Below, one piece after another: positions 17,757-34,879 of a DNA stretch of 64,000 bases. The stretch covers positions 287,702 to 351,701 of the forward strand of contig MKVH01000002.1 in NCBI GenBank assembly GCA_001899175.1. Direction: 5' to 3'. The notes under the pieces are model-generated. The model worked only from the letters and a program-made list of their open reading frames with translations. It was not told the origin of the DNA and made no database searches. How positions within the stretch are numbered: position 1 is the stretch's first letter; each line of letters opens with the position of its first letter. The DNA is from Candidatus Kapaibacterium thiocyanatum. Its GTDB lineage: Bacteria > Bacteroidota > Ignavibacteria > Kapaibacteriales > Kapaibacteriaceae. The translations under genes and the position numbers were made by a program.

Positions 17757-18112
17757 TGTTGCGTCGCATCATCATCATCGTCGCAGTCCTGACCATTCCC
17801 GTCGTCATCTACATCGCAGCCCAGTACGGACGTCTTACGGAAACGACGTTCGCAGGCGCCATCACGGCGACGTCGACGGGTGGGGAAGGCGATCAGGCTC
17901 CGAAGGTCATCATCGTCACCACCATCGACAACCCGGATGCGGGCGATGGCTACATGACCGGCCATGACGGTTCGGGACGTGCCTTCCGCATCCAGTACAC
18001 GGGCTCGGTTCCCGAGCAGCCTTTCTCGAAGGGCACGACAGTACGATTCGTCGGCCACGTCCACGGTGCCGACGACGGATATTTCCATGCTACACAGGTA
18101 TACGGCAAATGA
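17753..18112 (+). CDS. CcmE-fold paralog (membrane-anchored OB-fold protein)
   Basis: 119 aa. N-terminal TM helix, C-terminus ...TTVRFVGHVHGADDGYFHATQVYGK. ATGA-coupled to both neighbours. Confidence 0.55.
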   Translation: MMLRRIIIIVAVLTIPVVIYIAAQYGRLTETTFAGAITATSTGGEGDQAPKVIIVTTIDNPDAGDGYMTGHDGSGRAFRIQYTGSVPEQPFSKGTTVRFVGHVHGADDGYFHATQVYGK

Positions 18113-20484: not shown

Positions 20485-20946
20485 CGTCGGCAGCCCCACG
20501 GATGCCGTCATCCGTCGAACCTGCCTGTTCTTGCCCTCGATCAGTTCCAGTTCGAGCCAGTCCACGGGAACGTTCTTCCGCTCGCGGATCGGCGGTATGC
20601 GCTCGTGTACCGTCGGTGCAGGATGCAATCTCCGTGCCCGGCATGGGCGGGTACGATAGTCTCCGATCATGACTCCACGACGAAGTGCGGCAAGTGCCTC
20701 GTCCGAGATCGTGCCCTCGACCTGCGACCAGTAGGTACGCCAGTGTGCCTGCGATGGATCGAGCAGGCGCGAAGTCAATCCCTTCTCGTCGCCGAGCAGC
20801 AACATCCCCTCACTGTCCGCATCCAGGCGTCCGACAGGATAGACACCGGCAGGGAAGTCGAACGCAGCCAGCGTTCCGTAGGTGCTGCCGGGTTCCGGTG
20901 TGAATTGCGAGAGAATGCCGAAGGGTTTGTTGAAGAGAAGAAGCAT
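20374..20946 (-). CDS. rluE: 23S rRNA pseudouridine synthase RluE
   Basis: LLFNKPFGILSQFTPE...GRLDADSEGMLLL...NRQVRRMTASVGLPTLRLLRVRIG, close to E. coli RluE throughout. Confidence 0.85.
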   Translation of the reverse strand: MLLLFNKPFGILSQFTPEPGSTYGTLAAFDFPAGVYPVGRLDADSEGMLLLGDEKGLTSRLLDPSQAHWRTYWSQVEGTISDEALAALRRGVMIGDYRTRPCRARRLHPAPTVHERIPPIRERKNVPVDWLELELIEGKNRQVRRMTASVGLPTLRLLRVRIGMLGLGDLAVGTWREVGAGERTLLFAQT

Positions 20947-20995
20947 CGCGCAAGATACCGCACAGGAGCGATGGAGTCTGCTCCACCTGACATCG

Positions 20996-23149
20996 TCAAC
21001 GCATGAAGCCCGGAACGACCTCGCTCACGCGTCCGTCACTCACGCGCAGCCAGTACGGTCCGGAAGGTATGGTCTGCGGATCGTATACGGCCGGCAGTCC
21101 TTTCACGAGCGATAGCCTCGTCCCATGGATGACACGGCCCAGGAGATCGACGACGTCCATCGTGACCGTCACGTTCCTGTCCGCATGCAGCATCACGGCC
21201 GCACGGCCGTCGTTGCCCGTCACGTATTCCATACGAAGCGAGCCCGCGACGGACGGATCGAAGAGCCGCACCTTGCCATCGCGGCATAATGAATCCACCG
21301 TGATGCTGCCCTGGTCGACGATGGTACGGATGCCGATGGACATGTCCTGGTCGTCATACCATGTCGGCTCGAGAAGGAGGGAGGAATCCGATTCCATCGG
21401 ACCCATCACGATGCGGCCGGGAATGCGGATGAGCGTATCGCCGACGTTGATCCCACTCAGCGAATCGATGTCGATGGTATACGTGCGCTCGAAGGTCGAG
21501 GCCGTGATGCGTGTCGACGTGCCTGCGTCGGGAACGAAGAGGGCATCGTTCCACTGCAGTCTGAAGCTGAGTCGTTCGGGATGGAAGGCGGAATAGACCG
21601 CTGTATCGCTCACGCCTTCGAACGTGACGGCGATAGTGGAAGCGTCTCCCGGCATACCGGCGATGTCGTTCACTTTCAGGACATAGTAGGGCTTGTACAG
21701 CCGCTCGAAGGCCATGCCGCCCGTATAGCCATAGGATTCGGCAGGACCGTATCCGTAGATCGAAATACCGAATGCCGAATCACAGACGATGGTATGGGAA
21801 CCGTAGGCGACGGAAATGTGGGCATAGCTGTGACGCGTACCCGGTATCGGAACGTAGTTCACATTCGGAGATATCCCATCGACACGGAGGGAGGACGTTG
21901 CGCCGTTCGCGCAGACGACGGTTAAGGTATGCTCGTTGTAGAACGGGGTGAAGCCGGGCTGCGGTTCGATATTCGCCACCGTATATCCGCTCAGATACTG
22001 TTCCGTTGGCGGTACGATGAGAAGGAATGGATCACCGCTGCGGATGTTCATGGTTCCCGTGGGAGAGCTGGAACGATCGATGATCGCACAAAGCACGGGG
22101 CTGGTCGCCGAGACGACGACCGGCTGCCTGAGGAGACCTTCCAGCCAGGCTCCCGCATCGAGCCTGACGGGAGCCTGGCCGTTGATGCTGACCATCGTTC
22201 CGTTCTCGCTGCCGAGAATGCGATACAGTGGAGCGTCGTTCGGATTGGTATAGACGGCGTCGGCCGGTGGTCTTGGTGGAATGACGATGCAGCTCTTTCC
22301 CCACGTATCGACGGGCAGGACCTGTTCGATCAGGATATCGCGGCTGGTATTCGTACTGGCCAACGGTGCGCGGGCACGCATATGGCCGGAGATCACGGCG
22401 ATGGGGCGGGTGGACCGGACCAGCGAACCCGTGAGATCGTCGGTCAGGTCGGTCTCGGATGCCCAGGCCTGTACCAGATAGGTTTCGCCCTTGTCCAGAC
22501 GCGTCGTGCGACGTCCGCCCGGACCCATGGACGTCCTGCCCGGTACCGCGTCGATGGTGATGTCCGTCGAGTCCTGTGTCGCGATGACGACGAACTGGCT
22601 CGGGAATGCGGACAGGGTCGATCCTCCGAAGGGATTCGGGGTGACCGTGACGAGGGATGGGTAGGACATGATACGATGGTCGATTCCGAGGACGTCGGTC
22701 GGCAGGACGAGCCAGGCATCCGTCGTGAGGAATTCGCGTGAGGCCGCATAGACCGTGACCTCGTCGTCGGAGACGATATGGAGCGAGTACGGCGTCGCCC
22801 GTTCGTCGTCATGCTGGCGGTCCAGCACGTAGTCATGGGAACGCAGCTCGAAGTCCTGATAGGCCAGATCGACCAATACCATTTCGTTGGCATTCGGAAG
22901 GTCGACGTCCATGCGGAACGGAGCACCGCTCCGCTGCACGCCTGTGATCGTGGCCTTCGTCGGACGTTCGGCCGTGATGTAGATGTACAGGCCCGGATTC
23001 TGGGACGATGCATGATCGTTGGGAGGGAAGGCCAGCCAGAAGTCCGTTCCCTTGCTGTCCCGAAGGGATTGTGCCGACGTGTAGGACGACGCTGCCATGA
23101 TCAGCAGCGCGATCATGGTCAGCGATACGAAGCGATGGTGCGTGTACAT
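20996..23149 (-). CDS. Secreted protein with IgGFc-binding-like N-terminal domain (GTDFWLAFPPN) and T9SS C-terminal sorting domain
   Basis: Signal peptide MYTHHRFVSLTMIALLIMAASSYTSAQ. C-terminal ~80 aa resemble a Por/T9SS CTD. Confidence 0.6.
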   Translation of the reverse strand: MYTHHRFVSLTMIALLIMAASSYTSAQSLRDSKGTDFWLAFPPNDHASSQNPGLYIYITAERPTKATITGVQRSGAPFRMDVDLPNANEMVLVDLAYQDFELRSHDYVLDRQHDDERATPYSLHIVSDDEVTVYAASREFLTTDAWLVLPTDVLGIDHRIMSYPSLVTVTPNPFGGSTLSAFPSQFVVIATQDSTDITIDAVPGRTSMGPGGRRTTRLDKGETYLVQAWASETDLTDDLTGSLVRSTRPIAVISGHMRARAPLASTNTSRDILIEQVLPVDTWGKSCIVIPPRPPADAVYTNPNDAPLYRILGSENGTMVSINGQAPVRLDAGAWLEGLLRQPVVVSATSPVLCAIIDRSSSPTGTMNIRSGDPFLLIVPPTEQYLSGYTVANIEPQPGFTPFYNEHTLTVVCANGATSSLRVDGISPNVNYVPIPGTRHSYAHISVAYGSHTIVCDSAFGISIYGYGPAESYGYTGGMAFERLYKPYYVLKVNDIAGMPGDASTIAVTFEGVSDTAVYSAFHPERLSFRLQWNDALFVPDAGTSTRITASTFERTYTIDIDSLSGINVGDTLIRIPGRIVMGPMESDSSLLLEPTWYDDQDMSIGIRTIVDQGSITVDSLCRDGKVRLFDPSVAGSLRMEYVTGNDGRAAVMLHADRNVTVTMDVVDLLGRVIHGTRLSLVKGLPAVYDPQTIPSGPYWLRVSDGRVSEVVPGFMR

Positions 23150-24231
23150 AGCTCTATCATCTCCCTCGCAGAACGTTCCCACGTAAAGGTGGATGCCCAG
23201 CGCACGGCACCTTCGCTCAGACGACGACACTCCTCGTCGTTCACCAGTACGTGTTTGATTGTTCGTGCTAGACTATCGATATCGCCATATTGATACAGTT
23301 TCCCCGATTCTCCATCGCGGATGGAGTCCCTCAGCCCGGGCACGTCGGCGCTTATCACCGGTGTTCCGCAGGCATTGGCTTCGATGTTCGTGATTCCCCA
23401 GCCCTCCTTGACGGAGGTATTGACGGCCACATGGGCCTCGGACAACATACGTACCTTTTCCTCATCGGTGACGAAGCCGGTGAAGGTCACGTTGTCCGCG
23501 ATTCCCAGTTCGCGGCACAGATCCTCGAGTCTCGGCCGGTCGTCACCCGTTCCCATGATATTGACGCGCAGGTCGGGAATGTCCCGCTTGACCATCGCTG
23601 CGGCGAGGAGGAGATGGTCGACGGACTTGTACTTCTTGAGACGTCCGAAATAGACGATGGTAGGGCGTGCATTCTTCGTTCCGACCGTCATGGGAAAGGC
23701 GTGCTGGTCGATGGCGTTATGGATCACGCTGATGTGCGATCCGTCGAGGCCGCGTTCGATGCATTCCTTGCGCGTGCTTTCCGAGACGACGTTGATCGGT
23801 GTGTTGCGATAGATCCGCCCTATACGATCCTCGAAGAACTTGACGTAGGCGCCGGCGGCGAAGCCGGCCTGCTGGAAGATCGCGGGACCGAAGAAATGAT
23901 GGATCAGGGCGAGGAGCGGGCGTCGCACATAGAGCGGCGTGAAGAACGGAATCTTGTTGATGTCGTCGATGACGATATCGGGTGCCAGGGCATCGACGTG
24001 ACGACGATACCAGCGGGGGACGGTGTAGTTGAACGTGGACCTGTTACCTGCCCGGATGACGTCGATACCATCGAGCGTTTCACGATGCGGCGCATCGTCG
24101 TAGTGGCTGCAGAACAACGTCACCGGGTGTCCTGCAGCCGCTATGCGTCCGAAAATTTCATGGAGATGGGTTTCGGCACCACCCGCCTGGGGATTCGTGC
24201 GATCCTGCCAGTTAAGAACGAGAATGCGCAT
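23119..24231 (-). CDS. Glycosyltransferase family 4
   Basis: MRILVLNWQDRTNPQAGGAETHLHEIF... and C-terminal GT4 motif GWGITNIEANACGTPVISAD. Confidence 0.8.
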   Translation of the reverse strand: MRILVLNWQDRTNPQAGGAETHLHEIFGRIAAAGHPVTLFCSHYDDAPHRETLDGIDVIRAGNRSTFNYTVPRWYRRHVDALAPDIVIDDINKIPFFTPLYVRRPLLALIHHFFGPAIFQQAGFAAGAYVKFFEDRIGRIYRNTPINVVSESTRKECIERGLDGSHISVIHNAIDQHAFPMTVGTKNARPTIVYFGRLKKYKSVDHLLLAAAMVKRDIPDLRVNIMGTGDDRPRLEDLCRELGIADNVTFTGFVTDEEKVRMLSEAHVAVNTSVKEGWGITNIEANACGTPVISADVPGLRDSIRDGESGKLYQYGDIDSLARTIKHVLVNDEECRRLSEGAVRWASTFTWERSAREMIELCTRTIASYR

Positions 24232-24234
24232 CGA

Positions 24235-26298
24235 TCAGCGTTGGGGCGTTTCCACGAGCACTTCCACCGTACGCGAGTAGAAGCGTCCTTCCGGTGTGTC
24301 GTTATTGTAGAGTGGCAGACGTTCGCCGAGGCCGGATGCACTCGCTTCGCCGACACCGAGGGCCTTTGCGACCGTCCGTGCCCGCTGTTCGCTCAGGCGC
24401 TGGTTGTAGTCCTCGGAGCCCGTCCTGTCCGTATAGCCTACGACGCGCACCTGCGACGTCGGCTGGATACGTTCCTTCACGTCGTTGACGACGCTCTGGT
24501 TCGCCGGTGAAAGGTCGGCCTTGTCGAAGGCGAAGAGAATGAGGCTGTAGCGATCGATCGTCTTGTCGGTACTGCCCGACGAACGCTTGCTGTCGATGGT
24601 CACTTCGCTGATGGGCAGTTTCGAGGACTGGGAAGGAATCACCATGCCGCTCGAATCCCGAACGACGAGCAGGTACTTGAGTTCGCCTGATCCATGCGGG
24701 ATATAGGCGGATTGCTCTTCGATTCTCCAGTCCACGCTGGGTGGAATCGGATTGCCATCGTGGAAGGTCTTGATGATGCGGTCGTTATTCGTGACGAACA
24801 GCGTCCACGTTGCGATGGGAATGCGCGGATCGATAGACGGCTGGAAGCGGATACCGGCTGGCTGGAAGACACGCATGGTATCGCGCGATTCCACGGGGGC
24901 GAGGATGGCGGGTGACGACGAGCTGATCTCGACGCGTCTGTTCTCCGCACGACCATCGACGTCGGCTTCGTTCGACGGCTTGTCCGGGAGGCCACGCGTT
25001 TCGATGTTCACATGGGATGGATCGACATCCCACATCCCCACGAGGTAACTCTTCACCGCAGCGGCACGCGATGTCGCGATGCCCGTATTTCTCGATGCTT
25101 CCGTACCGTCCGTGCATCCCGTCAGGGTGATGCTTGCCGACGGATCCTGTTGCATCCGCTTGCCGATGATGTTCAGCAGGTGATAGTAGGTGTGCATTGC
25201 GTCGAGGTTGTAGAAGTTCTCGACGGCGAACGCTTCCGTCTGTTCATCCCTGAGGCGGCGATACCGGACCGGTACGTCCGACGAGTTCTCGTCGAAGAAG
25301 ACGTAGGGAAGGATGGGGCGTACGCGTCGTGAAGCGAATTCCTCGATCCGTATCGACGTTCCCGTCGTGCGGCCGTCTTCCGTCAGGCCTGTGGCCGAAA
25401 CGGCGGACGTGAACGGGATACCGGGAGTATTCTTCGTCGGCGGGGTGATCGTGCGTGCGAAATCATAGAGTTCCGCATCCGACAGCGAGTCGTCCACAAC
25501 GTCGGGCGGGATGAAGGACAGGGCAAGTCCCGCACGGATCTGATGCGTGTTCCACGAGAGGCCCGAGACGACGGGCATCGGCGAGAACGTGAAGAGGACT
25601 TCAGGGCTCAGGAGGACCGTCTTGTCGGCATTCAGAGGGATGTCGTACGAGGCGCCGACGGTGACGCCGAGGGCGAGTTGACTGGCCTTGGGAATGTCGC
25701 CCGAGACGACATTGCGCTGACGCTGGTCGTTGGAGAAGGTGGCATTGGACGGCGAGACCAGCACTTCGGCCTGGTCGAACGTCGCACCCAGCAGGTAGCC
25801 TGCGGTGAATCCGCCATGCAACGTGAATTCGGGATTGACATGATAACCGAACAATGGTTCTATGCTGATCTGCTTGAACGAGGCCGTGAGGTCATGGCGG
25901 ATCGTGGCGGGGCCTGTCGTTCCGTCCGACATCATGATGGTCTTGTTCTCCGTGGCCGAGAAGGGTGCCTGATACTGACCGTAATGCAGACGTATCGCGA
26001 TCTGCGTCGTCGCGTTGAAGGGCGAGATGTAGGTAAGACCTGCGAACCATCCCGTACCCGTCACACCGGAGAATTCCGGGCAGCAATTGGGGACGGTGGG
26101 CAGACTCGAGAAGGAAGCGGAATGCAGACCGATGGCGTAGTTACCGAACAGGCCGATGCGCGGGCGGAGCAGGGGATCGGTCTGTACCTGGGCCTCGAGC
26201 TGTTGCGCGAACGTGCATACGAACAGTGCAGCGAGAAGAAAACGCATCATGACGGTCCTGGGTGTAGTCGTTCGATTGGGGGCTTGGTTGGAGATCAC
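24235..26298 (-). CDS. OmpA-family outer-membrane protein with tandem OmpA-like domains (paralog A)
   Basis: C-terminal VVGYTDRTGSEDYNQRLSEQRARTVAKAL, plus an internal LTGCTDGT...NRRVEI OmpA-like domain. N-terminal predicted barrel has a CCP motif. Likely signal peptide starts at M17 (26250). Confidence 0.8.
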   Translation of the reverse strand: MISNQAPNRTTTPRTVMMRFLLAALFVCTFAQQLEAQVQTDPLLRPRIGLFGNYAIGLHSASFSSLPTVPNCCPEFSGVTGTGWFAGLTYISPFNATTQIAIRLHYGQYQAPFSATENKTIMMSDGTTGPATIRHDLTASFKQISIEPLFGYHVNPEFTLHGGFTAGYLLGATFDQAEVLVSPSNATFSNDQRQRNVVSGDIPKASQLALGVTVGASYDIPLNADKTVLLSPEVLFTFSPMPVVSGLSWNTHQIRAGLALSFIPPDVVDDSLSDAELYDFARTITPPTKNTPGIPFTSAVSATGLTEDGRTTGTSIRIEEFASRRVRPILPYVFFDENSSDVPVRYRRLRDEQTEAFAVENFYNLDAMHTYYHLLNIIGKRMQQDPSASITLTGCTDGTEASRNTGIATSRAAAVKSYLVGMWDVDPSHVNIETRGLPDKPSNEADVDGRAENRRVEISSSSPAILAPVESRDTMRVFQPAGIRFQPSIDPRIPIATWTLFVTNNDRIIKTFHDGNPIPPSVDWRIEEQSAYIPHGSGELKYLLVVRDSSGMVIPSQSSKLPISEVTIDSKRSSGSTDKTIDRYSLILFAFDKADLSPANQSVVNDVKERIQPTSQVRVVGYTDRTGSEDYNQRLSEQRARTVAKALGVGEASASGLGERLPLYNNDTPEGRFYSRTVEVLVETPQR

Positions 26299-29200
26299 TT
26301 CGAAATCTCCAGTCGTTGTGAGCGGCGTTCCGTCGGAGTCGTCATGAGGATGTAGTAGGCACCGTTCGACATCGTCGTGACGTCGAAGGGCAGGCGGTAC
26401 ACACCCGGCTGGAGATAGCGATCAACGATCGTCGCGAGCGTGCGTCCGGTCATGTCGACGACGGTCACGGTCGTATGGCCGCGTTCGACGACGGCCACGT
26501 CGATCGTCGCCGGTCCGGTCGCAGGCTGCGGTGAGACGTGGATGCCGGCTCCCTGTGCCGCAAGCTTGATGAGTCGTGGTCCACCCTGGCGGCAAAGGTC
26601 GTCGAGGATGACCTGTCCGGGTTGCGTGCGTACCAGGATGGTATCCGCTACGCGGATGTTCGTGAAGGCGACGGTGGACGCCGTGTCGTTGCCCCACAGC
26701 GAATGGAAGCGGAGTGTCGTCGCGAGCGAGTCGTTGCCAGCGGGAATCGTGATGCGTACGGGAATCGTTCGCATGCCGTTGCTGACCGTACCGACAGGTG
26801 TCTGCCCCGAAGGCATCAGCAGGGTGGCGTTGACGATGACATCGACATCGATGTCACGGACCGTCGTGCGGTCGAGGTTGATCTTGTCGGTGATGTAGAC
26901 CGGTACGTCGATGCCACGGTCCGTATGTACGCGCATCGTGTCGGCACGGAGCAGGACACCGATATAGGTGCTGACGGTGGCACGGAATTGCAGCGTCTGA
27001 TTGTGGTTGCAGGTCGAGTCCATGAACGTGTACGATGCCGTATAGGCATTACCTGCCGTGCCCCCGCGGAAGCGGACGACGACGGTCGAGATGCCGCCCG
27101 GCGGTGTTACGTCGGGAAGGATGGATTCGATCCGGAAGGTTCCGAGTTCGATGGGCCCCTTGGGCCAGCGCAGTGATACCGTTCCGGTGTTGAGGATCTG
27201 GAACGTCTCCGTTGCAGGTGTATTCTCCGGAACGTTATCGAATGCGACGACGGGACGTGTGAGTTCGAAGCCGATCGAATCCTTGCGGGCAACGAGTTGC
27301 GTATAGGTTTCGCCGCCGATGGCATTCATGGCCGTCGACGTGAAGATCGCCTGCGCCGTGCGGATGCCCGGAATCATCGGCGTGAAGCGGATGATGAAGT
27401 CCTGCTTCGCCTTCGCTGCGAGTTCGAGCGGAAACTGTATCGATCCCACCGGAGTGATGGTGAATTCGGAGGCGTTCAGTCCGGCGACGCGTGCCTCGAA
27501 CAGGAGGAGCGATGAGTTGCCCGTATTCGACACGGTGATGGTCCGCTCCACCGGTGTGCTGTTGCAGGCATCGACGTCGAAGACGACCGACTGAACCGTC
27601 GAGATGGTGGCGTCGCCGCTGCCCTCACCGTAGAGTTTGACGACGATGGGAGCGCCAGATTCCGTCGTGAGGGTGACCTGTGCCGCGAAGCGGCCAAGGT
27701 CGGTGGGTTCGAAGCGCAGGATCAGGGAACGCGTCTCACCCGGAGCGAGGGTGAAGAATCCACCGCCCTGGACGATGGAGAACTGTCCTGATGCCGGGCC
27801 CGTCAGCGACGTTCCGGTGACGCGTACGGCCTCCGTGGCCGATGCCGGTAGGCTGATCACGATGGTCGTGTCGTTGGTGCCGAGGTTGGCGACCTTGCGT
27901 CCGAAGTCGACGAGATACGGTACCTGGAGTTGGGGCAAGGTACCGTTGCCGAAGACGCGTGTGCGGATCGTTCCCGTACCGGTTTCGATATCCAGATCTG
28001 CGCTACGGGCTCCTGCGGCCGTCGGTGCGAAGGCGAACTCCACGTCGAGAGCGGCACCGGGTGCCAGCATCGTGGACGTCGGAACGGAGACCATGTCGAA
28101 GTCCGTGAGATCGCCGGATGCGAGCCTGACGCTACGGATGGCAAGCGGCGTCGTACCGGTGTTGCGCACCACGGTCGCCGTCTTGTCGATACCGTTGCGG
28201 ACCATGACCGTCCCCATGTCGACGTCGCTGCCCGTTGCCGTACCGCCGACGACGGAGAAGGTGGCGTCGGAGACGTCCTCAGTGAGACGAAGGCCACCGA
28301 GGTTCCATATCCGTGCCGTGAAGTCCGTGGAGGCGGTGATGACGGACGTTCCGTTCTGACCGTATCGTGCGCTGTAGACCAGCCCGCGGTGGCCGGCGAG
28401 GAAGTTCGTCATGCGCAGCGTTCCCGCATCCAGGAACTTCGCCGTGCCATCGCCGCCTGCGGCGAGGATCTGGCTGCCGTTCGGAGAGTATCGTACGGAC
28501 AGGATGGAACCGCTGGACGGATTCGACTGCGTTCGTTGCTGGCCGGTGGACGCATTCCAGGTCCGTACCGTGAGATCGGCACTGCCTGAGACGACGGTGC
28601 TGCCGTCAGGCGAGATGTCCGCGCTGTAGACCGGACCGGTATGTCCGGTGAAACGCTGGATGACGTCCATCTGGTTGACGTCACGGATGACGGCGGTCTG
28701 TCCCTCGCCGCAGACGAGGCGCGTACCGTCGCCGTTCATGACGATGGAGTGTACGGCGCCCGTGACCTGCGTCTGCTGTCCGGCGATGGCGCCGTTCTGG
28801 ATCACCGTCAGGGCGTTGTCCTGTCCTACATATAGCTTGGATCCGTCCTTCGAGAAGACGAGCGACCATACGCGGCTACCGACCGGGATGGTCTGGATGA
28901 GCTGACGCGTATCGATGTCGAAGAATCGCACGGTGCCGTCGAAACTGCCGCTGGCCACGACGGGTTGCGTCGGGTGGCCCGCCACGGACGATACCCAGTC
29001 ACCATGCGTACCGAGACGGGCGATATGTTCACCGGTCTGTGCATTCCAGAGATTGACGCCGCCATCATGGCCGCCCGTTACCGCCCGGGTTCCACCTGCC
29101 ACGAATTCTGCCGTATAGAGGGGCTGTTCACCCGACAGGACGACGACCTTCGATGCATCGATGACCGTCTGCTGGATACGGACCTTGGCATGAGTCGTTT

Positions 29201-30593
29201 GTACAGGGCCGGGAACCCATCGATAGGAAAGTCCCGTCGCCGATTCCGTCAGGCTGGCCCACGTCGTTCCGTCGTCCGTACTCAGATCGATGCGTACGGG
29301 ATCGTCTGGCAACGAGCCTGTCCATGTGATGACGGTGTCGATACCGGCCGTGAGCGTTTCACCGCCGTTGGGGGAAACGACCCGAAGCGTGTTGTCGCGT
29401 GACCGGAAACCGGCCTTGGCACGGATGGTCTGGGACGAGCAGGCGTCGCTCGTCACGGTGATCGTGGCGAACTGTCCCGTCGAATCCTGGGCATCGTATC
29501 GGATGGTGATGTCGTGGCTCTGATCGGGCTGTAGTGTCACGTTCGGCGGTACGGCGCCACTCGTGATGGTGAAACGGGGGTTGTCGACGACGATGTTCGT
29601 GATGGTCACGGGCTTGTTGCGTGCCGTGAGGGTGACGGTGCGCGTGGCCGATGAGGAGACGGCCACTTCGCCGAAGGCGAGGCCGGTCGTACTGGCGTCG
29701 AGGAGCGAGCGTGAGCCGACGGGTACCGAATACGAACGATTCCTGGTAGTGGTGGTCCTGGTCAGGACGATGGCCCTGTCGGCGTTGCAGTTTGCGGAAG
29801 CCGTCCAGCTCACCGTACAGGAACCGAGCTGCTTGGCATCGGCGACGAAGGCACGTGCGTGGATCGTGGCTTCCAGAGCGGTCTGGATGTTTTCGGCCCA
29901 TGTGCCGCCGGACTCGGTGGCGAGGGTACGAAGGGATTCGGAGACGGGTGTTCCGACCCCGATGACGTAGATCCTGATGTGGAAGGTGCGCGCCAGCGAG
30001 AGCAGGGCCTCGACGTCGATACGGGTATTACCGTCCGTCATCAGGAGGAGCGTGCGATCGTAGCGTGCGTTCAGGAGCTGGTTGATCGCTCCCATCGGGC
30101 TTTCGTTGAGGCCGTTGGTCAGGTTCGTACCCTTGCCGACCTGCAGTGCGTCGACGGCAGAGGCGAAGCGCGGACGGTTCGACGTCGGTCCGAGCTGAAG
30201 CATCGGATGCTGATCGTAACCGATGAGACCTGCCTCATCGGCGGGATTCGTCAGTACGGCTTCGATGGCCTTCGCACCGGTCTTCTGGATGTCGAGGACC
30301 TGTGCCTGTGTCGATGCCGAGATGTCGCATGCCACCATCAGCGACAGGATACGCGCCGTACCCGCGGGAGGGCATACCGTCTGCGACGGCAGGACCTGGC
30401 CGTCTTCCCTGACGGTGATATCGTTGGCACCGGATTCGATGGTTTCGAGATCGCCCGATCCATTGAAGCCGAAGACGCGTGTGGAGATGGCAGGATAATT
30501 CCTGGAGTCCACGTTCATGACCACGAAGGACTGTGCCGTAAGTCCGATCGTAGTGAGTAACGTGCATAGAACGAACAGGGTAGCAGTGCGCAT
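26295..30593 (-). CDS. Giant secreted protein: vWA domain + WD40 beta-propeller + multiple Ig-like/ASPM-type beta domains + T9SS C-terminal sorting domain
   Basis: Signal peptide MRTATLFVLCTLLTTIGLTAQ. vWA-like metal-site region (LLLMTDGNT...IRIYVIGVG). Multiple WD repeats (SGSFDGTVRFFD, GSADLTVRTWN). T9SS-type C-terminus ...YRLPFDVTTMSNGAYYILMTTPTERRSQRLEISK. Alternative starts at 30599/30614. Confidence 0.75.
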   Translation of the reverse strand: MRTATLFVLCTLLTTIGLTAQSFVVMNVDSRNYPAISTRVFGFNGSGDLETIESGANDITVREDGQVLPSQTVCPPAGTARILSLMVACDISASTQAQVLDIQKTGAKAIEAVLTNPADEAGLIGYDQHPMLQLGPTSNRPRFASAVDALQVGKGTNLTNGLNESPMGAINQLLNARYDRTLLLMTDGNTRIDVEALLSLARTFHIRIYVIGVGTPVSESLRTLATESGGTWAENIQTALEATIHARAFVADAKQLGSCTVSWTASANCNADRAIVLTRTTTTRNRSYSVPVGSRSLLDASTTGLAFGEVAVSSSATRTVTLTARNKPVTITNIVVDNPRFTITSGAVPPNVTLQPDQSHDITIRYDAQDSTGQFATITVTSDACSSQTIRAKAGFRSRDNTLRVVSPNGGETLTAGIDTVITWTGSLPDDPVRIDLSTDDGTTWASLTESATGLSYRWVPGPVQTTHAKVRIQQTVIDASKVVVLSGEQPLYTAEFVAGGTRAVTGGHDGGVNLWNAQTGEHIARLGTHGDWVSSVAGHPTQPVVASGSFDGTVRFFDIDTRQLIQTIPVGSRVWSLVFSKDGSKLYVGQDNALTVIQNGAIAGQQTQVTGAVHSIVMNGDGTRLVCGEGQTAVIRDVNQMDVIQRFTGHTGPVYSADISPDGSTVVSGSADLTVRTWNASTGQQRTQSNPSSGSILSVRYSPNGSQILAAGGDGTAKFLDAGTLRMTNFLAGHRGLVYSARYGQNGTSVITASTDFTARIWNLGGLRLTEDVSDATFSVVGGTATGSDVDMGTVMVRNGIDKTATVVRNTGTTPLAIRSVRLASGDLTDFDMVSVPTSTMLAPGAALDVEFAFAPTAAGARSADLDIETGTGTIRTRVFGNGTLPQLQVPYLVDFGRKVANLGTNDTTIVISLPASATEAVRVTGTSLTGPASGQFSIVQGGGFFTLAPGETRSLILRFEPTDLGRFAAQVTLTTESGAPIVVKLYGEGSGDATISTVQSVVFDVDACNSTPVERTITVSNTGNSSLLLFEARVAGLNASEFTITPVGSIQFPLELAAKAKQDFIIRFTPMIPGIRTAQAIFTSTAMNAIGGETYTQLVARKDSIGFELTRPVVAFDNVPENTPATETFQILNTGTVSLRWPKGPIELGTFRIESILPDVTPPGGISTVVVRFRGGTAGNAYTASYTFMDSTCNHNQTLQFRATVSTYIGVLLRADTMRVHTDRGIDVPVYITDKINLDRTTVRDIDVDVIVNATLLMPSGQTPVGTVSNGMRTIPVRITIPAGNDSLATTLRFHSLWGNDTASTVAFTNIRVADTILVRTQPGQVILDDLCRQGGPRLIKLAAQGAGIHVSPQPATGPATIDVAVVERGHTTVTVVDMTGRTLATIVDRYLQPGVYRLPFDVTTMSNGAYYILMTTPTERRSQRLEISK

Positions 30594-31424
30594 CGTCATG
30601 CAACCAGGCCTCAAATAGATTCAACGACGTATCGAGTCAAGCACGAGCCATAAAAGTACCATTTCGGTGATGGCGCGACAAACTTTCTTTGACGGGGCGA
30701 AGACCGGGTATCGGCCGGTCGCGGTGGCCCGTTCTCCATCGCTCGTGCCATCAGGAATGGAGAACGCCGATCGTCAGCGGTCCGTTACAGGGATACCTGT
30801 CCGGACGGACTCGGAACCCGGTGCCGATCTGCATCGTCGCGACCGAACGACGCAGCACCGGTGTGAGGATCATTGTCGATTCGTCCGCAGTTCGTCCGCA
30901 GTGTCTTGCCGGAGTGCCTTGATGGGGGGAGATGGGAGGCGAGTACGACCGGAACGACGGGAGGGGCCGGTACGTGAAGGCGAATTCACGAACTGCGACG
31001 TTCGGTCGGTCGAAGGCGAATTCCTGGAAGGGAACGGGTGACGAATGGAGGCGATGCCGACGACCTTCCATATCAGGACGAAGGGTTCCGGCACTGGCCG
31101 CCGTGTAACGGAGGAACGACAGAACAGGACGATGGACGAAAGACCGATGAGGATGTCGAAGCTCCAGCCCGTGAAGCTCATGATGGCCCGAACCTTATGC
31201 TGCAGGGAAAGCCGATGCAGTACCAGGTCCACGGGGAAACGCAGGGCATGCCAGGCATCGTGGAACGCCCGGTAGTATCATGGATAACCGTACGCGATGT
31301 CGTATGAAGACGGTCTCAATGTCACGAAAACAGCGGTATCGGTACGAGAAGAGATGACCGACGCAGCCCGTGATGGAAGGGCTACGCCGGTCATGATGGA
31401 CTCACTGGATCGTCATGGGGCGCA

Positions 31425-33455
31425 TCACTCGATCGGAGTTTCGACCACGACCGTCACGGTGCGGCTGTATGCACGTCCCTCCGGGAGGTGGACATCGTAG
31501 GGCGACTGCTCTCCGAGCGATCGTACGTCTGCTCCTTGCAGCTTGAGTACGCGCGCCGTTTCGTTCGCACGACGTCGCGACAGCTCCAGATTGTACATGT
31601 CCGAACCGATGTTATCGGTGAAGCCACTCACGGTGACCGTCGATGCGGGACGTATACGCTGGGCGATGAGGTCGATGATGGCAGCATTCGCTCCCTTGAT
31701 GGCGGCGTCGTTGAAGTCGAAGAGGATGAGACTGAAGCGATCGATCTCCTTGTCGGCGATGCGCTCGATACGCTTCTTGCGGATCGTCATCTGCTGCACG
31801 CCGATCTGTTTCGCCGGTGGCATCAGCACGCTTCCGGCACGATCCTCGAGGGTCAGTTGATAGTCGACGGCGCTTTCGCTGCGGGGGATGGCCGTACGAT
31901 CGGAAGTCACGTCCCACGTCACGAACGTGGGAAGGGTATCCCTGCCATGCATGGAATACAGCGTACGTCCATCCTGTCTGGCTTCCACCTTCCATGTGGC
32001 GAGGCCAGCCGACGCGACGGACGTGAGATCGAAGCGTACCTGTTGCGGTGTCGATGTCCGCAACGTATCCGTCGTGAAGACCGGACGCAGGATCCTGCTG
32101 TCCGAACTGGTGATCTCCACACGACGATTCTCTTCGTGAGCGAGGGGAATGTCCGCCGGATCGCTCGCCCGCGTGGGATGTTCCGGCAGGAGACGCTGCT
32201 GGATCCGTATCCGCGACGTATCGATACCGCAGACATCGATGAAGTAGGCACGTACGGTCTTCGCCCGTGCCAGCGCCAGTGCGGTGCCTGCATCGCGACC
32301 CGTCTCGGACGTGCACCCCGTCAGTGTGAGCGTCGCCGCCGGATTGTCCCGCATGCGTCGTCCGACGATGTTCAGGATATGGTAGTAGGTCTCCAGTGTT
32401 CCTTGTGCATAGAGCTGCTCTTCCCTGAACGACTGTACGGACGAAGGATCGAGATTCCTGTATCGTGCCGGTAATGTGGAACTGCCTTCGTCGAAGAAGA
32501 TGTAGTTCAGGAGCGGCCGCAGGTCCGTGGCCACGATTTCCTCGATGCGCAGTGTGACGTCGTCGATCAACCGCCCATCGTCCTCTATGCCGTGCGCTTC
32601 GATGTCGCCACCGAGGAAGGGTCTGACGGGTGGTGGAGGCGGAACGGTATCGGGCGGCGGAGGTGGTGGAGCAGGAGGTTCGGAGATCGGCGACCAGCCG
32701 AGTGCCAGTCCGAACCGGAGTTGATGGGCCTTCCACGAGACACCGTCCGCCACACCGGTGAGGGCATGATGGTAGAAGATTTCGGGGGCGAGGAAGGTCG
32801 TGCCGCGTGTATTGAGGGGCAGGACGTACCGGGCACCGACGGCGATGGTGGCCCGCAATGTGGACGCACCCGGAATGTCCTTCGAAACGTCGACCCATAC
32901 ACGGTCACTACCGAGATAGGCGCCGTAGTCCGCGGGTTCGATCATCGTTTCCGTCTGATGGACCGACGACGTCGTGACGTAGGCGAGACGTCCGCCGACG
33001 AACAGATCCAGCCCACCGATGGCGCGCCAGCCGATCATCGGCTCGAGACCGATGCTGGACAATGTGGCATCGAGGTCATGGCGGAACAGCGCCTCGACGA
33101 CGCGAGCGGAGTCGCGCAGATCCGCTACGACCGTACGTTCGTCATCGGACTGACGTCCTCCTTCACCGGCATAGGTGAGGCGAAGGTGGAGCTTCCACCG
33201 GTCATCGAGCGGAAGCGTGCCGAAGGCACCCAGATAGAAGCCATTGCCCGACCCTCCGTCGAACGACGGGCAGCAGGACGGGATGTCGCCGAGTTTCCGG
33301 AAAGAGGCCACGTGACTGTTGCGCCCGTATCCTCCGAGGATGCCGAGTTCGGGGCGTGCGGCAGGAGCCTGTTGTCCATGCGCGGAGACGAGAACCGTCG
33401 ACGTCAGTACCAGGGCCGAGAGTATGGTTCGAAGCATAGTCGCAATTCCCGTCAT
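31425..33455 (-). CDS. OmpA-family outer-membrane protein with tandem OmpA-like domains and poly-Pro linker (paralog B)
   Basis: Same architecture as 24235..26298: CCPSF motif, LTGCTSETG...NRRVEI, C-terminal VSGFTDNIGSDMYNLELSRRRANETARVL. Linker PPAPPPPPPDTVPPPPPV. Confidence 0.8.
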   Translation of the reverse strand: MTGIATMLRTILSALVLTSTVLVSAHGQQAPAARPELGILGGYGRNSHVASFRKLGDIPSCCPSFDGGSGNGFYLGAFGTLPLDDRWKLHLRLTYAGEGGRQSDDERTVVADLRDSARVVEALFRHDLDATLSSIGLEPMIGWRAIGGLDLFVGGRLAYVTTSSVHQTETMIEPADYGAYLGSDRVWVDVSKDIPGASTLRATIAVGARYVLPLNTRGTTFLAPEIFYHHALTGVADGVSWKAHQLRFGLALGWSPISEPPAPPPPPPDTVPPPPPVRPFLGGDIEAHGIEDDGRLIDDVTLRIEEIVATDLRPLLNYIFFDEGSSTLPARYRNLDPSSVQSFREEQLYAQGTLETYYHILNIVGRRMRDNPAATLTLTGCTSETGRDAGTALALARAKTVRAYFIDVCGIDTSRIRIQQRLLPEHPTRASDPADIPLAHEENRRVEITSSDSRILRPVFTTDTLRTSTPQQVRFDLTSVASAGLATWKVEARQDGRTLYSMHGRDTLPTFVTWDVTSDRTAIPRSESAVDYQLTLEDRAGSVLMPPAKQIGVQQMTIRKKRIERIADKEIDRFSLILFDFNDAAIKGANAAIIDLIAQRIRPASTVTVSGFTDNIGSDMYNLELSRRRANETARVLKLQGADVRSLGEQSPYDVHLPEGRAYSRTVTVVVETPIE

Positions 33456-33497
33456 GATGAACCAGGGTATACGTGCTGCATATGACTCTGAACGTGA

Positions 33498-34160
33498 CTA
33501 TTTGTGACCCGGCATGAAGGCCGATGGACACAATGCGGTGATGGTGCATTCCGAACAACGCGGACGCCGCGCAATACAGGTACGGCGTCCATGCGTGATG
33601 ATGCGATGATTGAAGCTGTTCCACAGCTCCGGCTCCATGAGGTCCATCAGCGTGAACTCGATACGCACGGGATCGGTATCGTCCACAAGCTTCAGCAGAT
33701 TGCTGATGCGGATGACATGGGTATCGACCGTGATCCCCGGGATGCCGTAGTAATTGCTGAGGACACAGTTCGCCGTCTTTCGTCCCACACCGGGTAGCGA
33801 CACCAGTTCCTCGAGCGTGGCGGGGACTTCGCCGTCGAAGTCGTCGATCAGCTTCGCACAGCATCCCCGTATGTTCTTCGCCTTGTTCTTGTAGAAGCCT
33901 GTGGAACGGATATCCTCCTCCAGTTCCTCGGCGGGTACGAGCAGGTAGTCTTCCGGTGTGCGGTACTTCTTGAAGAGGGACTTGGTGACGATGTTGACGC
34001 GTTCGTCCGTGCACTGCGCGGACATGATGGTGGCCACGAGGAGTTCGAGGGCATTGGTGAAGTCCAGCCCCGCTTTCGCATCGGGATAGGTCTTGCCCAG
34101 GATGTTGATGATCGATGCGAGGCGTGTGCGGCGTGCCGCACGGGATTCACGTTTGGCCAT
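33498..34160 (-). CDS. nth: Endonuclease III
   Basis: HhH-GPD motif LVSLPGVGRKTANCVL and the C-x6-C-x2-C-x5-C [4Fe-4S] cluster. Start set at the internal Met (MAKRES...). Confidence 0.85.
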   Translation of the reverse strand: MAKRESRAARRTRLASIINILGKTYPDAKAGLDFTNALELLVATIMSAQCTDERVNIVTKSLFKKYRTPEDYLLVPAEELEEDIRSTGFYKNKAKNIRGCCAKLIDDFDGEVPATLEELVSLPGVGRKTANCVLSNYYGIPGITVDTHVIRISNLLKLVDDTDPVRIEFTLMDLMEPELWNSFNHRIITHGRRTCIARRPRCSECTITALCPSAFMPGHK

Positions 34161-34827
34161 GGTTCGAACAGAGACTGTCGGGAGTATCCCGATGATAGAT
34201 ATAGGTGGGGTGATCCGTCCTGGCGATGACGACGCCTTCGTGCGAAGCGCGTTCGTGCAGCATTGCGTCGTCGGCATATCGTACGGCGTCGAACCCTCCC
34301 AGAGCCGTCAGGACGTCGCGGCGGATGACGAAGGTGCCGCCCACGACGCATTCCGCGATATGGATGGACTTCGTGGGATCGTCCTTGTCGGCCACGTAGG
34401 GCGTACCGACGATGTCCACGCCGCCGTGGAGGAATTCCACCATCGGATGGTCGAGCAGCATGCGCTTGCGGGAAGCCAGATGGTCGGGCAGGTATTCGTC
34501 ATCCGAGTCGAGGAAGGTCACGAAGAGCCCGCTGCTCGCCTGCAGGCCTGCGTTCCGGGACAGTCCGGTGCCCCTGTTCGTATGGTACAAGCCGCGTATG
34601 GTTCTGTGTGCGGCTGCGTACCTTTGCACGACGGCGGCCGTGTCATCGGTCGAGCCGTCGTCCACGACGATCGCCTCCCAATCCGTTTCCGTCTGTGCGA
34701 GCAGCGAGTCGAGAGCGCGGGGCAGCAGCGCTGCCCGATTGTACGTGCAGATGACGACGCTGAAGAACGGACGTCGTTCGACGCGCAGGGAACTGGTGGA
34801 TTCGGAAAACATGGAATCGGAGCTCAT
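34147..34827 (-). CDS. Glycosyltransferase family 2
   Basis: FSVVICTYNRAALLPRALDSLLAQT...VVDDGSTDDT, a GT2 (GT-A) signature. Start could be M6 (34812). Confidence 0.75.
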   Translation of the reverse strand: MSSDSMFSESTSSLRVERRPFFSVVICTYNRAALLPRALDSLLAQTETDWEAIVVDDGSTDDTAAVVQRYAAAHRTIRGLYHTNRGTGLSRNAGLQASSGLFVTFLDSDDEYLPDHLASRKRMLLDHPMVEFLHGGVDIVGTPYVADKDDPTKSIHIAECVVGGTFVIRRDVLTALGGFDAVRYADDAMLHERASHEGVVIARTDHPTYIYHRDTPDSLCSNHGQT

Positions 34828-34879
34828 GGATCAAAACTACGACGACTTGGAAGAACCGCTCGACCACGGTGCGGAATCG

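Follow-up and report, generated by a model that had tools for sequence, protein, structure and literature searches.

What is achieved by a cell-surface locus in which a giant vWA–WD40–Ig protein is bracketed by two paralogous proteins with tandem OmpA-like domains? In 'Candidatus Kapabacteria' thiocyanatum, one contig carries such a locus on its minus strand, with OmpA_B followed by the 1434-aa giant, OmpA_A, a GT4 glycosyltransferase and an IgGFc_binding protein. A preliminary description took these genes for a dedicated adhesin or surface-layer module. Here, we use profile searches, AlphaFold2 models, Foldseek comparisons and gene-neighbourhood surveys to describe a pairing that recurs across many related genomes and points to a so far undescribed means of attaching type IX-secreted adhesins to the cell. 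We call the giant and the IgGFc protein cargos and the OmpA paralogs anchors, after the roles proposed for them below; the window is the whole 64-kb stretch of DNA analysed.

Results

All five open reading frames of the preliminary description were found on the minus strand where it had placed them (Table 1), although its lengths were those of maximal ORFs and the genes probably encode 1434, 717, 671 and 670-676 aa. The ATGA overlap at 26295-26298, said to couple the giant to OmpA_A, reads GTGA and exists only if translation begins at an unlikely, non-conserved GTG; the start of OmpA_A indicated by gene callers and also by the alignment of homologues is ATG 26250, after a 44-nt spacer. The successive genes are closely packed, the first two junctions measuring 44 nt and 3 nt and the third being an overlap of 31 nt. 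A profile search returned a clear GT4, kept at this position in close relatives only. The paralog pair and the giant stay together in 12 of the 12 close relatives recovered, with syntenic OmpA_B orthologues in ten and contigs that end inside the giant gene in the other two, but this full-block synteny also takes in the housekeeping genes nth, rluA and ccmF and therefore proves little at that depth. No T9SS core genes were found among the scanned ORFs of the window.

Table 1. Features of the locus, in window coordinates
Feature	Position	Strand	Description
OmpA_B, anchor paralog B	31425..33455	(-)	676 aa (callers also 670 aa); signal peptide, 8-stranded barrel, PPAPPPPPP linker
OmpA_B after linker		(-)	OmpA-like domain 1, Ig-like domain, OmpA-like domain 2
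OmpA_B CC codons C61-C62	33270..33275	(-)	loop homologous to L1 of OmpA_A
OmpA_B–giant spacer	30600..31424	(-)	825 nt; only 100-300 nt in relatives
Possible Bacteroidetes-type promoter	TTTG 30682-30679, 20 nt, TACTTTTA 30658-30651	(-)	read by eye, in OmpA_B–giant spacer
Giant cargo	26295..30599	(-)	1434 aa; signal peptide, vWA, Ig, WD40 propeller, ~5 Ig (choice-of-anchor D / ASH) repeats, C-terminal module
vWA domain of giant	29907..30338	(-)	residues ~88-231; PF00092; DISAS MIDAS motif, DxSxS from residue 92
WD40 beta-propeller of giant	28227..29156	(-)	residues ~482-791; PF00400, 2.2e-34, and many propeller families
Ig-like repeat stalk of giant	26973..28226	(-)	choice-of-anchor D / HYDIN-ASH type; NF012200, PF22544, PF07610, PF22073
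Cohesin-like pre-CTD domain of giant	26610..26972	(-)	residues ~1210-1330; AF2 pLDDT >92; Foldseek
Conserved linker Cys C1336 of giant	26592..26594	(-)	motif DDLCRQGGPRL, 98 residues from C-terminus
Type-A T9SS-like C-terminal sorting domain of giant	26298..26537	(-)	sub-threshold alone; seven-strand sandwich in model
OmpA_A, anchor paralog A	24235..26250	(-)	671 aa; 44 nt downstream of giant gene
OmpA_A 8-stranded beta-barrel	25513..26160	(-)	residues 31-246; AF2; four strands of 25-26 residues
OmpA_A vicinal CC codons C56-C57	26080..26085	(-)	extracellular loop L1; alignment and model
OmpA_A OmpA-like domain 1	24916..25353	(-)	NRRVE at 437-441
OmpA_A Ig-like beta-sandwich	24601..24894	(-)	between the two OmpA-like domains; AF2 model
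OmpA_A OmpA-like domain 2	24238..24573	(-)	D608 and R623, C-terminal PEGRFYSRTV motif
GT4 glycosyltransferase	23119..24231	(-)	starts 3 nt past OmpA_A; 31-nt overlap with next gene
Second cargo	20996..23149	(-)	717 aa; signal peptide, IgGFc_binding domain, C-terminal module
IgGFc_binding domain of second cargo	21752-22720	(-)	profile match E = 1.6e-56
C-terminal module of second cargo	20999-21607	(-)	module HMM E = 2.5e-37
Conserved linker Cys C622 of second cargo	21284..21286	(-)	motif DSLCRDGKVRL

The vWA and WD40 domains proposed for the giant both hold in profile searches, the former when the N-terminus is scanned alone (PF00092, 38.2 bits against a cutoff of 23.8), and its Ig series corresponds to five choice-of-anchor-D / ASH repeats (NF012200, 9.2e-36, five stretches). 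The IgGFc_binding-like N-terminal domain of the second cargo was likewise recovered. Both cargos end in a common module of ~200 aa, in which a cohesin-like domain is followed by a flexible linker with an 'LC..GG.RL' Cys motif and by a type-A T9SS sorting domain. Pairwise alignment of the two modules gives E = 9e-5, and an HMM seeded from the giant matches only these two proteins in the 64 kb (E = 1e-71 for the giant). The AF2 model of the module (mean pLDDT 92) consists of two beta-sandwiches joined by the linker, which is disordered at model residues 131-139 and carries the Cys motif at its start. Foldseek relates the first sandwich of the giant to cohesins (E = 1e-6, TM 0.55-0.63); the Pfam Cohesin profile PF00963 is matched by four or five family members and not by the window's own domain. 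This domain is carried by 287 representatives and ends ~85-90 aa before the C-terminus in the listed matches checked.

Sorting domains had been assigned to both cargos. Taken singly, neither sequence reaches the curated cutoffs (22.7 against 27 for Pfam and 19.2 against 23 for TIGR04183 in the giant; 11.7 and 12.4, respectively, in the IgGFc protein), and the assignment stands only at the level of the family, where E <= 0.01 is reached by 52-53 of the 54 modules aligned and the CTD is type A, with PNP and C-terminal motifs, always at the extreme C-terminus. The module is constant while the passengers vary (ASH/HYDIN Ig, Ig_7, VWA, WD40, DUF7948/SBBP and PKD, in proteins of 374-3006 aa). WD40, which the preliminary description called rare as T9SS cargo, is not a rare passenger within this family. 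The surface-layer alternative is not supported, the cargos being diverse, multi-domain and adhesin-like.

The anchors are paralogs that align end to end (35% identity, E = 4e-138), each with two OmpA-like stretches (PF00691, 75.9 and 61.9 bits, cutoff 27.2). The reported CCP(E/S)F motif is present, as is the proline-rich linker in paralog B. AlphaFold2 predicts the N-terminal barrel with eight strands (mean pLDDT 92), similar in Foldseek to Ail, OmpX, NspA and OmpA-TM, and the C-terminal domain of OmpA_A resembles the peptidoglycan-binding domains of OprF and OmpA. The peptidoglycan-binding pair D608 and R623 is invariant in the family alignment; in OmpA-like domain 1, the corresponding Asp is not kept in B-type members. 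A profile search gave no PorP_SprF match for the barrel, no equivalog model reaches its cutoff for the anchors, and membership of a PorE-like family is not borne out (NF052230, 29.5 bits, cutoff 600). The genomes of 185,579 species contain at least 539 matches to this uncharacterised family. Loops of outer-membrane barrels are usually less conserved than the strands. Here the pattern is reversed, as the conservation of L1 (0.68) and of L3 (0.61) exceeds that of all the strands (0.44-0.58), and across 76 homologues C56 of L1 is invariant and C57 is at least 90% conserved.

Is the neighbourhood of cargo and anchor a property of the family? We surveyed 80 loci centred on family members of 33-62% identity in diverse genomes. 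A full-module gene lies within 500 nt of the anchor gene, on the same strand, in 53 of them; in the other 27 an adjacent module gene is absent, partly through contig ends. Full-module ORFs are adjacent in 48 cases and not in 20, whereas for proteins with the CTD only these numbers are 4 and 31 (Fisher p = 6e-9, which overstates independence because the loci are related). The 20 non-adjacent full modules are mostly IgGFc orthologues of close relatives, parted from an anchor by GT4 only. The giant-seeded HMM may miss divergent non-adjacent modules. Among family genes examined in distant lineages, 58 of 91 have a directly adjacent full-module gene, and the pairing persists in lineages that share none of the other neighbours. 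From the cargo side, seven of nine representatives taken from an all-against-library phmmer search have a full-length CC-bearing anchor within two genes, five of them directly adjacent. One cargo (P0251) has anchors on both sides, like the window's giant; for another (P0199), no anchor was found within 4 kb. Several anchor copies occur per genome (for example L018/L025, L030/L041 and L038/L082, each on two contigs of the same MAG), in some cases each next to its own cargo. The idea of a dedicated adhesin module is thereby supported and sharpened, in that the anchor family adjoins genes with one particular C-terminal module.

The linker Cys follows the full module: 75 of 88 full modules have it, as do 141 of 150 representatives and every one of the 30 sequences in alignment A6, against no more than 3 of the 47 CTD-only proteins. 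A single case of correlated loss was seen, in which the only anchor of 91 without any Cys in L1 (L066) adjoins the only adjacent cargo without the Cys. One cargo and two anchor cysteines make three, which one simple disulfide cannot satisfy.

Discussion

On balance, we lean towards reading the locus as a cargo–anchor system by which adhesins are displayed on the cell surface. Both cargos, the giant and the IgGFc protein, would be Sec-exported, and their sorting domain would take them across the outer membrane via the type IX system. CTDs cut by PorU span 67-88 residues, and a PorU-type cleavage would fall in the linker before the type-A-like CTD (PMC11285876); C1336, 98 residues from the C-terminus, would thus stay on the mature protein. 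The cohesin-like domain and the Cys linker, so retained, may dock each cargo onto its cognate OmpA_A or OmpA_B. The anchor barrel would lie in the outer membrane, exposing the conserved L1, with its vicinal Cys-Cys, and L3, while the two periplasmic OmpA-like domains would bolt it to peptidoglycan. The vWA/WD40 head would be displayed on the Ig stalk as a metal-dependent adhesin with a mechanical link to the cell wall. More speculatively, and only tentatively, we propose a disulfide between the single cargo Cys and the CC pair of the barrel.

Could the barrels instead be PorV- or PorP/SprF-like shuttles that help one particular cargo through secretion, rather than the final anchor? On this view they would be required to draw cargo with the module from the T9SS translocon. 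Type-B cargos and the PorP/SprF-like shuttles on which their secretion depends show the same gene pairing (PMC12618676), and the conserved motif of the flexible linker could be a recognition signal. The barrel is, however, 8-stranded and Ail/OmpX/OmpA-like, without similarity to PorP_SprF, its two peptidoglycan-binding OmpA-like domains with the D/R pair suggest a static, wall-fixed protein and not a mobile shuttle, and the CTD is type A, for which the studied species use the general PorV shuttle (PMC12618676). We consider this explanation unlikely.

It seems more doubtful still that the anchors are general envelope tethers, the major OmpA/OprF-like proteins of their lineages, which merely tend to occur in cell-surface gene neighbourhoods. 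Their OmpA-like architecture, their wide occurrence, the 27 loci that lack an adjacent module gene and the inclusion of housekeeping genes in close-relative synteny would fit, yet adjacency is specific to the cohesin-like and Cys module and does not extend to all T9SS cargo, it holds from the cargo side and where all other neighbours have changed, the most conserved barrel segments are extracellular loops, and both the L066 case and the copies lying beside their own cargo argue for partnership. Very improbable is a periplasmic or inner-leaflet complex with a degenerate, non-functional CTD, acting in envelope signalling or stress sensing after the model of BatA-type vWA proteins or PorE-like WD40/OmpA proteins: the window's CTDs do score below cutoffs and PorE, which is periplasmic, has WD40 and OmpA_C on a single chain (PMC12773672), but the family's CTD is clearly type A and terminal, the passengers consist of repeats typical of extracellular adhesins and the conserved barrel features face outward.

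A cargo–anchor system would not be as foreign to known biology as the preliminary description held, since type-B cargos with PorP/SprF-like barrels and PorE form a close functional analogue, known from SprB–SprF of Flavobacterium johnsoniae and PG1035–PorP–PorE of Porphyromonas gingivalis (PMC9143113, PMC12618676). The Kapabacteria system may be analogous to these, built from different parts and possibly disulfide-linked. In both, a large, repeat-rich adhesin gene adjoins its own barrel gene, usually with the cargo first and the barrel directly downstream, many pairs with varied passengers occur per lineage, and, as in PG1035–PorP–PorE, an OmpA_C peptidoglycan-binding element is included. In contrast, the sorting domain here is type A and not type B, the partner barrel is 8-stranded and OmpX/Ail-like, the OmpA function is fused to it as two domains and not supplied by a separate PorE, the cargo has an extra cohesin-like domain and Cys motif, and the lineage is Kapabacteria/Ignavibacteria. 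PorE itself (PG1058; TPR–WD40–CRD–OmpA_C; PMC12773672) similarly brings a WD40 propeller and OmpA_C into one T9SS-related unit, whereas here the propeller is on the predicted secreted cargo and OmpA_C on the barrel.

The anchors share with OmpA and OprF the predicted 8-stranded fold and topology and a C-terminal OmpA-like domain with the Asp/Arg pair. They differ in having two such domains with an Ig-like sandwich between them (~670 aa overall), extracellular loops that carry an invariant vicinal CC and are conserved instead of variable, and a dedicated genomic pairing with cargo. Similar to P. gingivalis type-A cargo, which the PorU/PorV/PorZ/PorQ complex attaches to anionic LPS (A-LPS), the cargos carry a type-A-like CTD after a flexible linker; what lies upstream of the CTD, a cohesin-like domain and a Cys motif that are both conserved, and the dedicated protein partner set them apart and suggest anchoring to protein rather than, or besides, A-LPS. 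The pre-CTD domain has the beta-sandwich fold of cellulosomal scaffoldin cohesins, but stands in a Gram-negative outer-membrane context with no dockerin-like partner evident.

Finally, the long spacer between OmpA_B and the giant gave no Rfam match over its 825 nt, and it holds a possible promoter of the Bacteroidetes consensus TTTG-N19-21-TAnnTTTG (Table 1).

Architecture of the locus

The locus probably encodes a cognate cargo–anchor system for surface adhesins, in which the cargo would be secreted by the T9SS and then bound and anchored by a dedicated barrel protein. Its five genes lie at the places given in the preliminary description, all on the minus strand, and encode two putative cargo proteins (the giant, with vWA, WD40 and Ig domains, and a second cargo with an IgGFc_binding domain), two putative anchors (OmpA_A and OmpA_B) and a glycosyltransferase. 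From the giant gene onward the genes are spaced by 44 nt and 3 nt and then overlap by 31 nt. An endonuclease III gene precedes OmpA_B, and the IgGFc gene is followed by one for a pseudouridine synthase and by the cluster for cytochrome-c maturation (ccm). An ATGA overlap previously placed at 26295–26298 has to be withdrawn, as the sequence there reads GTGA; this GTG is unlikely to start OmpA_A because the gene callers put the start at the ATG at 26250, as does the homologue alignment.

Features of the locus and its surroundings, in window coordinates
Feature	Position	Strand	Remarks
GAF–SpoIIE phosphatase gene	13130–15343	plus	partner-switching set, 13130–16139
STAS gene	15340–15702	plus	partner-switching set
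HATPase_c_2 anti-sigma-type kinase gene	15699–16139	plus	partner-switching set
ccm cluster	16151–20484
ccmF	18109–20484	plus
RluA-type pseudouridine synthase gene	20374–20946	minus
IgGFc_binding protein gene	20996–23149	minus	717 aa; last of five in transcription order
GT4	23119–24231	minus	glycosyltransferase
OmpA_A	24235–26250	minus	671 aa
Giant	26295–30599	minus	1434 aa
Spacer OmpA_B/giant	30600–31424		825 nt
Promoter-like element	30651–30682		Bacteroidetes-type, by eye
Small ORF in spacer	30751–30873	minus	from gene callers
Small ORF in spacer	31038–31307	plus	from gene callers
OmpA_B	31425–33455	minus	first of five in transcription order
Gene for 1159-aa protein	36230–39709	plus	DUF4175 the sole match

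Profile searches bear out most of the domain calls made from the sequence alone. Both head domains of the giant score above cutoff: the WD40 domain by PF00400 (116.9 bits against a cutoff of 27, 2.2e-34) and by many propeller families, over residues 481–790, and the vWA domain, when the N-terminus is scanned alone, by PF00092 (38.2 bits against a gathering score of 23.8). A DISAS MIDAS motif lies at residues 92–96, the later Thr and Asp having been picked out by eye only. The series of Ig domains corresponds to five choice-of-anchor-D Ig repeats (NCBIfam), the IgGFc-binding-like domain of the other cargo to IgGFc_binding (1.6e-56), and the glycosyltransferase is a clear GT4. The GT4 protein has an exact match in GCA_017307255.1 and several metagenome contigs, and is kept at this position in the close clade only. 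Databases name the four envelope proteins ‘choice-of-anchor D domain-containing protein’, ‘IgGFc-binding protein’, ‘OmpA family protein’ and ‘hypothetical protein’. The order nth–OmpA_B–giant–OmpA_A–GT4–IgGFc–rluA–ccmF is intact wherever the contigs of 12 close relatives reach, which by itself is weak evidence of linkage because the block takes in housekeeping genes (nth, rluA, ccmF).

A shared C-terminal module in the cargo proteins

When the giant was compared with 80 fetched genome loci by tblastn, many otherwise unrelated neighbours of anchor genes matched its last ~200 residues only. Of all ORFs in the 64 kb, a local, iterated HMM of this module picks out the giant, at 1e-71, and the IgGFc protein, at 2.5e-37, and no other; the C-termini of these two also align pairwise (E = 9e-5). 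Word-indexed searches with the module returned one protein from a single sequence and three from a 54-sequence profile, and were replaced by the local HMM and phmmer. The module begins with a ~105-aa domain, continues with a linker carrying the motif (D/T)(D/x)(L/I)C-x-x-G-G-x-R-L, and closes with a C-terminal sorting domain (CTD) that shows the PNP and C-terminal motifs typical of type A. In an AlphaFold2 model built from 30 representative-library sequences (pLDDT 92) it forms two beta-sandwiches, the CTD being a 7-strand sandwich, joined by a linker that is disordered at model residues 131–139 and starts with the conserved Cys. The first sandwich of the model resembles cohesins (Foldseek E = 1e-6, TM 0.55–0.63). 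The pre-CTD domain of the giant has no Pfam match, and PF00963 (Cohesin) matches 4/54 modules and 5/38 cargos, the window domain itself not being among them.

The T9SS sorting domains of the preliminary description probably stand at the level of the family. Individually, both window proteins remain below curated cutoffs (giant, 22.7 bits against 27 for PF18962 and 19.2 against 23 for TIGR04183; IgGFc protein, 11.7 and 12.4 bits, respectively), but in the alignment of 54 modules E ≤ 0.01 is reached by 52 with PF18962 and by 53 with TIGR04183 (8.6e-12 at best), and by this sequence similarity the window cargos are likely divergent members of the type-A CTD family. Type-B models (TIGR04131/PF13585) match none of the 54 modules; only type-A models do.

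Against 1.84 billion representatives, phmmer finds the pre-CTD part in 287 proteins, with a Cys at the expected site in 141 of the best 150; in those of the listed matches that were checked, the domain ends ~85–90 residues from the C-terminus. PorU-processed CTDs mapped by experiment span 67–88 residues (PMC11285876), and C1336, the linker Cys of the giant, lies 98 residues from its C-terminus and therefore would remain on the mature protein. At the other end, cargo N-termini as read from the translations are hydrophobic and end A↓Q in all, and are predicted Sec signal peptides. It is unlikely that the anchor-family barrels are instead secretion helpers for such cargo. For Ignavibacteriota and Chlorobiota the literature goes no further than that a T9SS ‘may be present’ (PMC11285876). 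None of the T9SS core genes (SprA/Sov, PorV, PorU, GldKLMN) occurs among the window ORFs scanned.

Pairing of cargo and anchor genes

The cargo–anchor reading draws on the arrangement of the genes. Among 80 genome loci centred on anchor-family members with 33–62% identity to OmpA_A, 53 have a full-module gene (pre-CTD domain, linker and CTD) on the same strand and within 500 nt of the anchor, the neighbour being upstream in 31 loci and downstream in 11, with one on either side in the other 11; counted by anchor gene, 58/91 have such a neighbour. Full-module ORFs are adjacent to an anchor in 48 cases against 20 that are not, whereas CTD ORFs without the pre-CTD domain are adjacent in 4 against 31 (Fisher p = 6e-9, over loci that are not phylogenetically independent). 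The 20 non-adjacent ORFs are mostly IgGFc orthologues of close relatives, parted from the anchor by the GT4 gene only.

As the loci are phylogenetically dependent and the giant had served as seed of the HMM, we added a cargo-side test with nine representatives out of a library-wide search. Five have an adjacent anchor (663–735 aa), two have one two genes off, one has none within 4 kb and one is on too short a contig. These anchors match OmpA_A with E ≤ 4e-65 and over the full length, barring contig-end cuts (L087, L089), and the vicinal Cys pair of the anchors (CC) is present in every one whose N-terminal part falls on the contig. One WD40 cargo, P0251, has an anchor on each side, as the window giant does. 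It is improbable that the barrel serves the envelope as a general tether whose neighbours are incidental, given that it is set beside full-module genes in these counts from both sides.

Passengers vary across 38 non-orthologous cargos of 374–3006 aa (ASH/HYDIN Ig, Ig_7, VWA, WD40, DUF7948/SBBP propellers, PKD), so it is the module and the anchor that stay constant in the cargo–anchor system. The surface-layer function considered earlier is rejected, since the cargos form a diverse set of multi-domain, adhesin-like proteins. At one locus of a relative (L086:3907–8562), a separate 239-aa vWA gene lies directly 5' of a WD40–ASH cargo gene, followed by the anchor, which suggests fusion or fission of the head domains of the giant. 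At another (L089:971–3784), a TPR–CHAT protease-like gene lies between the anchor gene and the module-bearing cargo gene. Many loci (L010, L011, L015, L017, L019, L021 and others) carry the Kapabacteria/Ignavibacteria-type family with a syntenic block in MAGs whose titles name Hyphomicrobiales, Bradyrhizobiaceae, Patescibacteria, Desulfobulbaceae or Armatimonadota; the taxonomic assignment of these bins is probably wrong.

The putative anchor family

OmpA_A and OmpA_B are paralogs along their whole length (35% identity, E = 4e-138), and the features first noted in them recur here: two OmpA stretches in each by Pfam (OmpA_C, PF00691, 75.9 and 61.9 bits; cutoff 27.2), the CCP(E/S)F motif in both and a proline-rich linker in OmpA_B. 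Hundreds of full-length homologues of OmpA_A occur in Kapabacteria, Ignavibacteria and Chlorobiota-type MAGs, and a survey of 185,579 species, each represented by a single genome, gives at least 539 confirmed matches.

In an AlphaFold2 model from an alignment of 76 sequences (mean pLDDT 92), OmpA_A has, in this order, a signal peptide, an 8-stranded barrel (31–246, four strands of 25–26 residues), a short helix, an OmpA-like domain (~300–445), an Ig-like sandwich (453–550) and a second OmpA-like domain (560–671). By Foldseek the modelled barrel resembles Ail, OmpX, NspA and the OmpA transmembrane domain, and the C-terminal OmpA-like domain resembles the peptidoglycan-binding domains of OprF, OmpA and AbOmpA (TM 0.76–0.81). 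D608 and R623, the canonical peptidoglycan-binding Asp/Arg pair of OmpA-like domains, are invariant among homologues; in the first OmpA-like domain the corresponding Asp is not kept in B-type members.

None of the curated equivalogs compared with the anchors (PorE, CHU_0125, OmpA porin, Omp38, MotB, TraB) comes near its cutoff. A resemblance to PorE/PG1058-like or MotB-like proteins, raised as a possibility in the preliminary description, fails with the PorE and MotB models far below cutoff; PorE (NF052230) reaches 29.5 and 26.3 bits against 600, in a match confined to the OmpA_C region, and TraB and MotB do not reach their score cutoffs. OmpA porin (PRK10808) scores 49.9 bits against 277, Omp38 50 against 500 and CHU_0125 23.7 against 620. 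When the barrel region is scanned at E ≤ 1, PorP/SprF (PF11751) goes unmatched, the sole matches being OMP_b-brl_2 (24.3 bits, cutoff 27), Toluene_X and DUF2490.

Loop L1 (48–59), which joins strands 1 and 2 and holds C56-C57, is placed outside the cell by topology rules applied to the model, given that the strand number is even and that the OmpA-like domains have to lie in the periplasm. It is highly improbable that cargo and OmpA-type proteins form a periplasmic complex, with this loop predicted to be extracellular. With a mean top-residue frequency of 0.68, L1 exceeds every other barrel segment in conservation, and L3 (0.61) comes next among the loops; the strands reach 0.44–0.58 and L2, L4, T1 and T2 0.30–0.41. 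Conserved surface loops are unusual in outer-membrane proteins, and the conservation of L1 and L3 suggests a conserved extracellular ligand.

Among 91 anchors the loop cysteines appear as CC in 88 and as a CxxC variant in two; one, at L066, has no loop Cys, and its cargo is the sole adjacent cargo without the module Cys. This joint loss, a single event, is what a functional link between cargo and barrel cysteines predicts. By eye, ‘PCCSP’ barrels go with ‘CRA.G’ cargos, an apparent covariation that is phylogenetically confounded.

Proposed mechanism and relation to known systems

How might cargo and anchor work together? In the cargo–anchor system that we propose, passage of the adhesin through the T9SS would depend on its type-A CTD. 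Outside the cell, the cohesin-like domain together with the Cys linker would bind surface loops of the cognate barrel, whose OmpA-like domains would in turn hold it to peptidoglycan, and the vWA/WD40 head would be displayed away from the cell on its Ig stalk. A more specific version is a tentative possibility: an undescribed, disulfide-based and cell-wall-coupled attachment in Kapabacteria, Ignavibacteria and relatives, with the one conserved linker Cys of the exported cargo, beside the cohesin-like domain, covalently hooked to the invariant CC pair in the surface loop of a dedicated 8-stranded barrel that tandem OmpA-like domains fix to peptidoglycan, each cargo having its own anchor.

To our knowledge, only two routes for surface retention of T9SS cargo are understood. 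Type-A cargo is covalently linked to anionic LPS, and type-B cargo is bound by PorP/SprF-like barrels, a route established recently. Of known systems, SprB–SprF and PG1035–PorP–PorE come closest; our locus would resemble them in its working without being a member. In these, type-B cargo binds a neighbouring PorP-like barrel, itself associated with the OmpA-domain protein PorE (PMC9143113, PMC12618676, PMC12773672). As in the type-B cargo/PorP-SprF pairs, the cargo gene here adjoins its putative cognate barrel gene on the same strand. Unlike in SprB–SprF and PG1035–PorP–PorE, the CTD is of type A and the barrel is of the 8-stranded Ail/OmpX type rather than PorP/SprF-like; moreover, the OmpA function that PG1035–PorP–PorE has in a separate protein is fused to the barrel, and the anchors do not have the TPR–WD40–CRD–OmpA_C architecture of PorE. 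In the literature searched, neither the anchor family or its mechanism nor cohesin-like adaptors for T9SS cargo are described, and the same holds for a T9SS in Kapabacteria.

A third arrangement is suggested by the locus, in classes of Bacteroidota that are little studied and for the most part uncultured, in which type-A-like cargo with a cohesin-like/Cys adaptor would be matched one-to-one with a barrel fused to peptidoglycan-binding domains. If true, this would give a function to a family whose members now go by no other names than ‘OmpA family protein’ or ‘hypothetical protein’, provide a simple prediction rule for surface-anchored adhesins in these lineages, account for the strong conservation of the extracellular loops and three cysteines, and offer a compact modular scaffold for surface display. 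The data also show ‘eukaryote-like’ vWA/WD40 scaffolding domains to be recurrent passengers of the putative surface proteins in this group.

Additional observations

The predicted signal-peptide cleavage sites of all four envelope proteins, encoded by the genes starting at 23149, 26250, 30599 and 33455 (minus strand), expose a Gln (A↓Q or G↓Q), and Q21 is at least 90% conserved over the anchor family. This is consistent with the ‘Bacteroidetes Q-rule’, which does not cover the whole FCB group (PMC5837995).

An Rfam scan of window positions 20000–35000 gave no match, and in sigma-70 promoter and terminator scans, which are uninformative for Bacteroidota-type promoters, shuffled sequences score as well. 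The spacer between OmpA_B and the giant, far shorter in relatives (100–300 nt), looks like degenerate coding sequence; it holds the two small ORFs and the promoter-like element of the table. Downstream of the five genes, the pseudouridine synthase gene and ccmF are convergent, with a called overlap of ~111 nt (20374–20484), and the partner-switching set lies immediately 5' of the ccm cluster.
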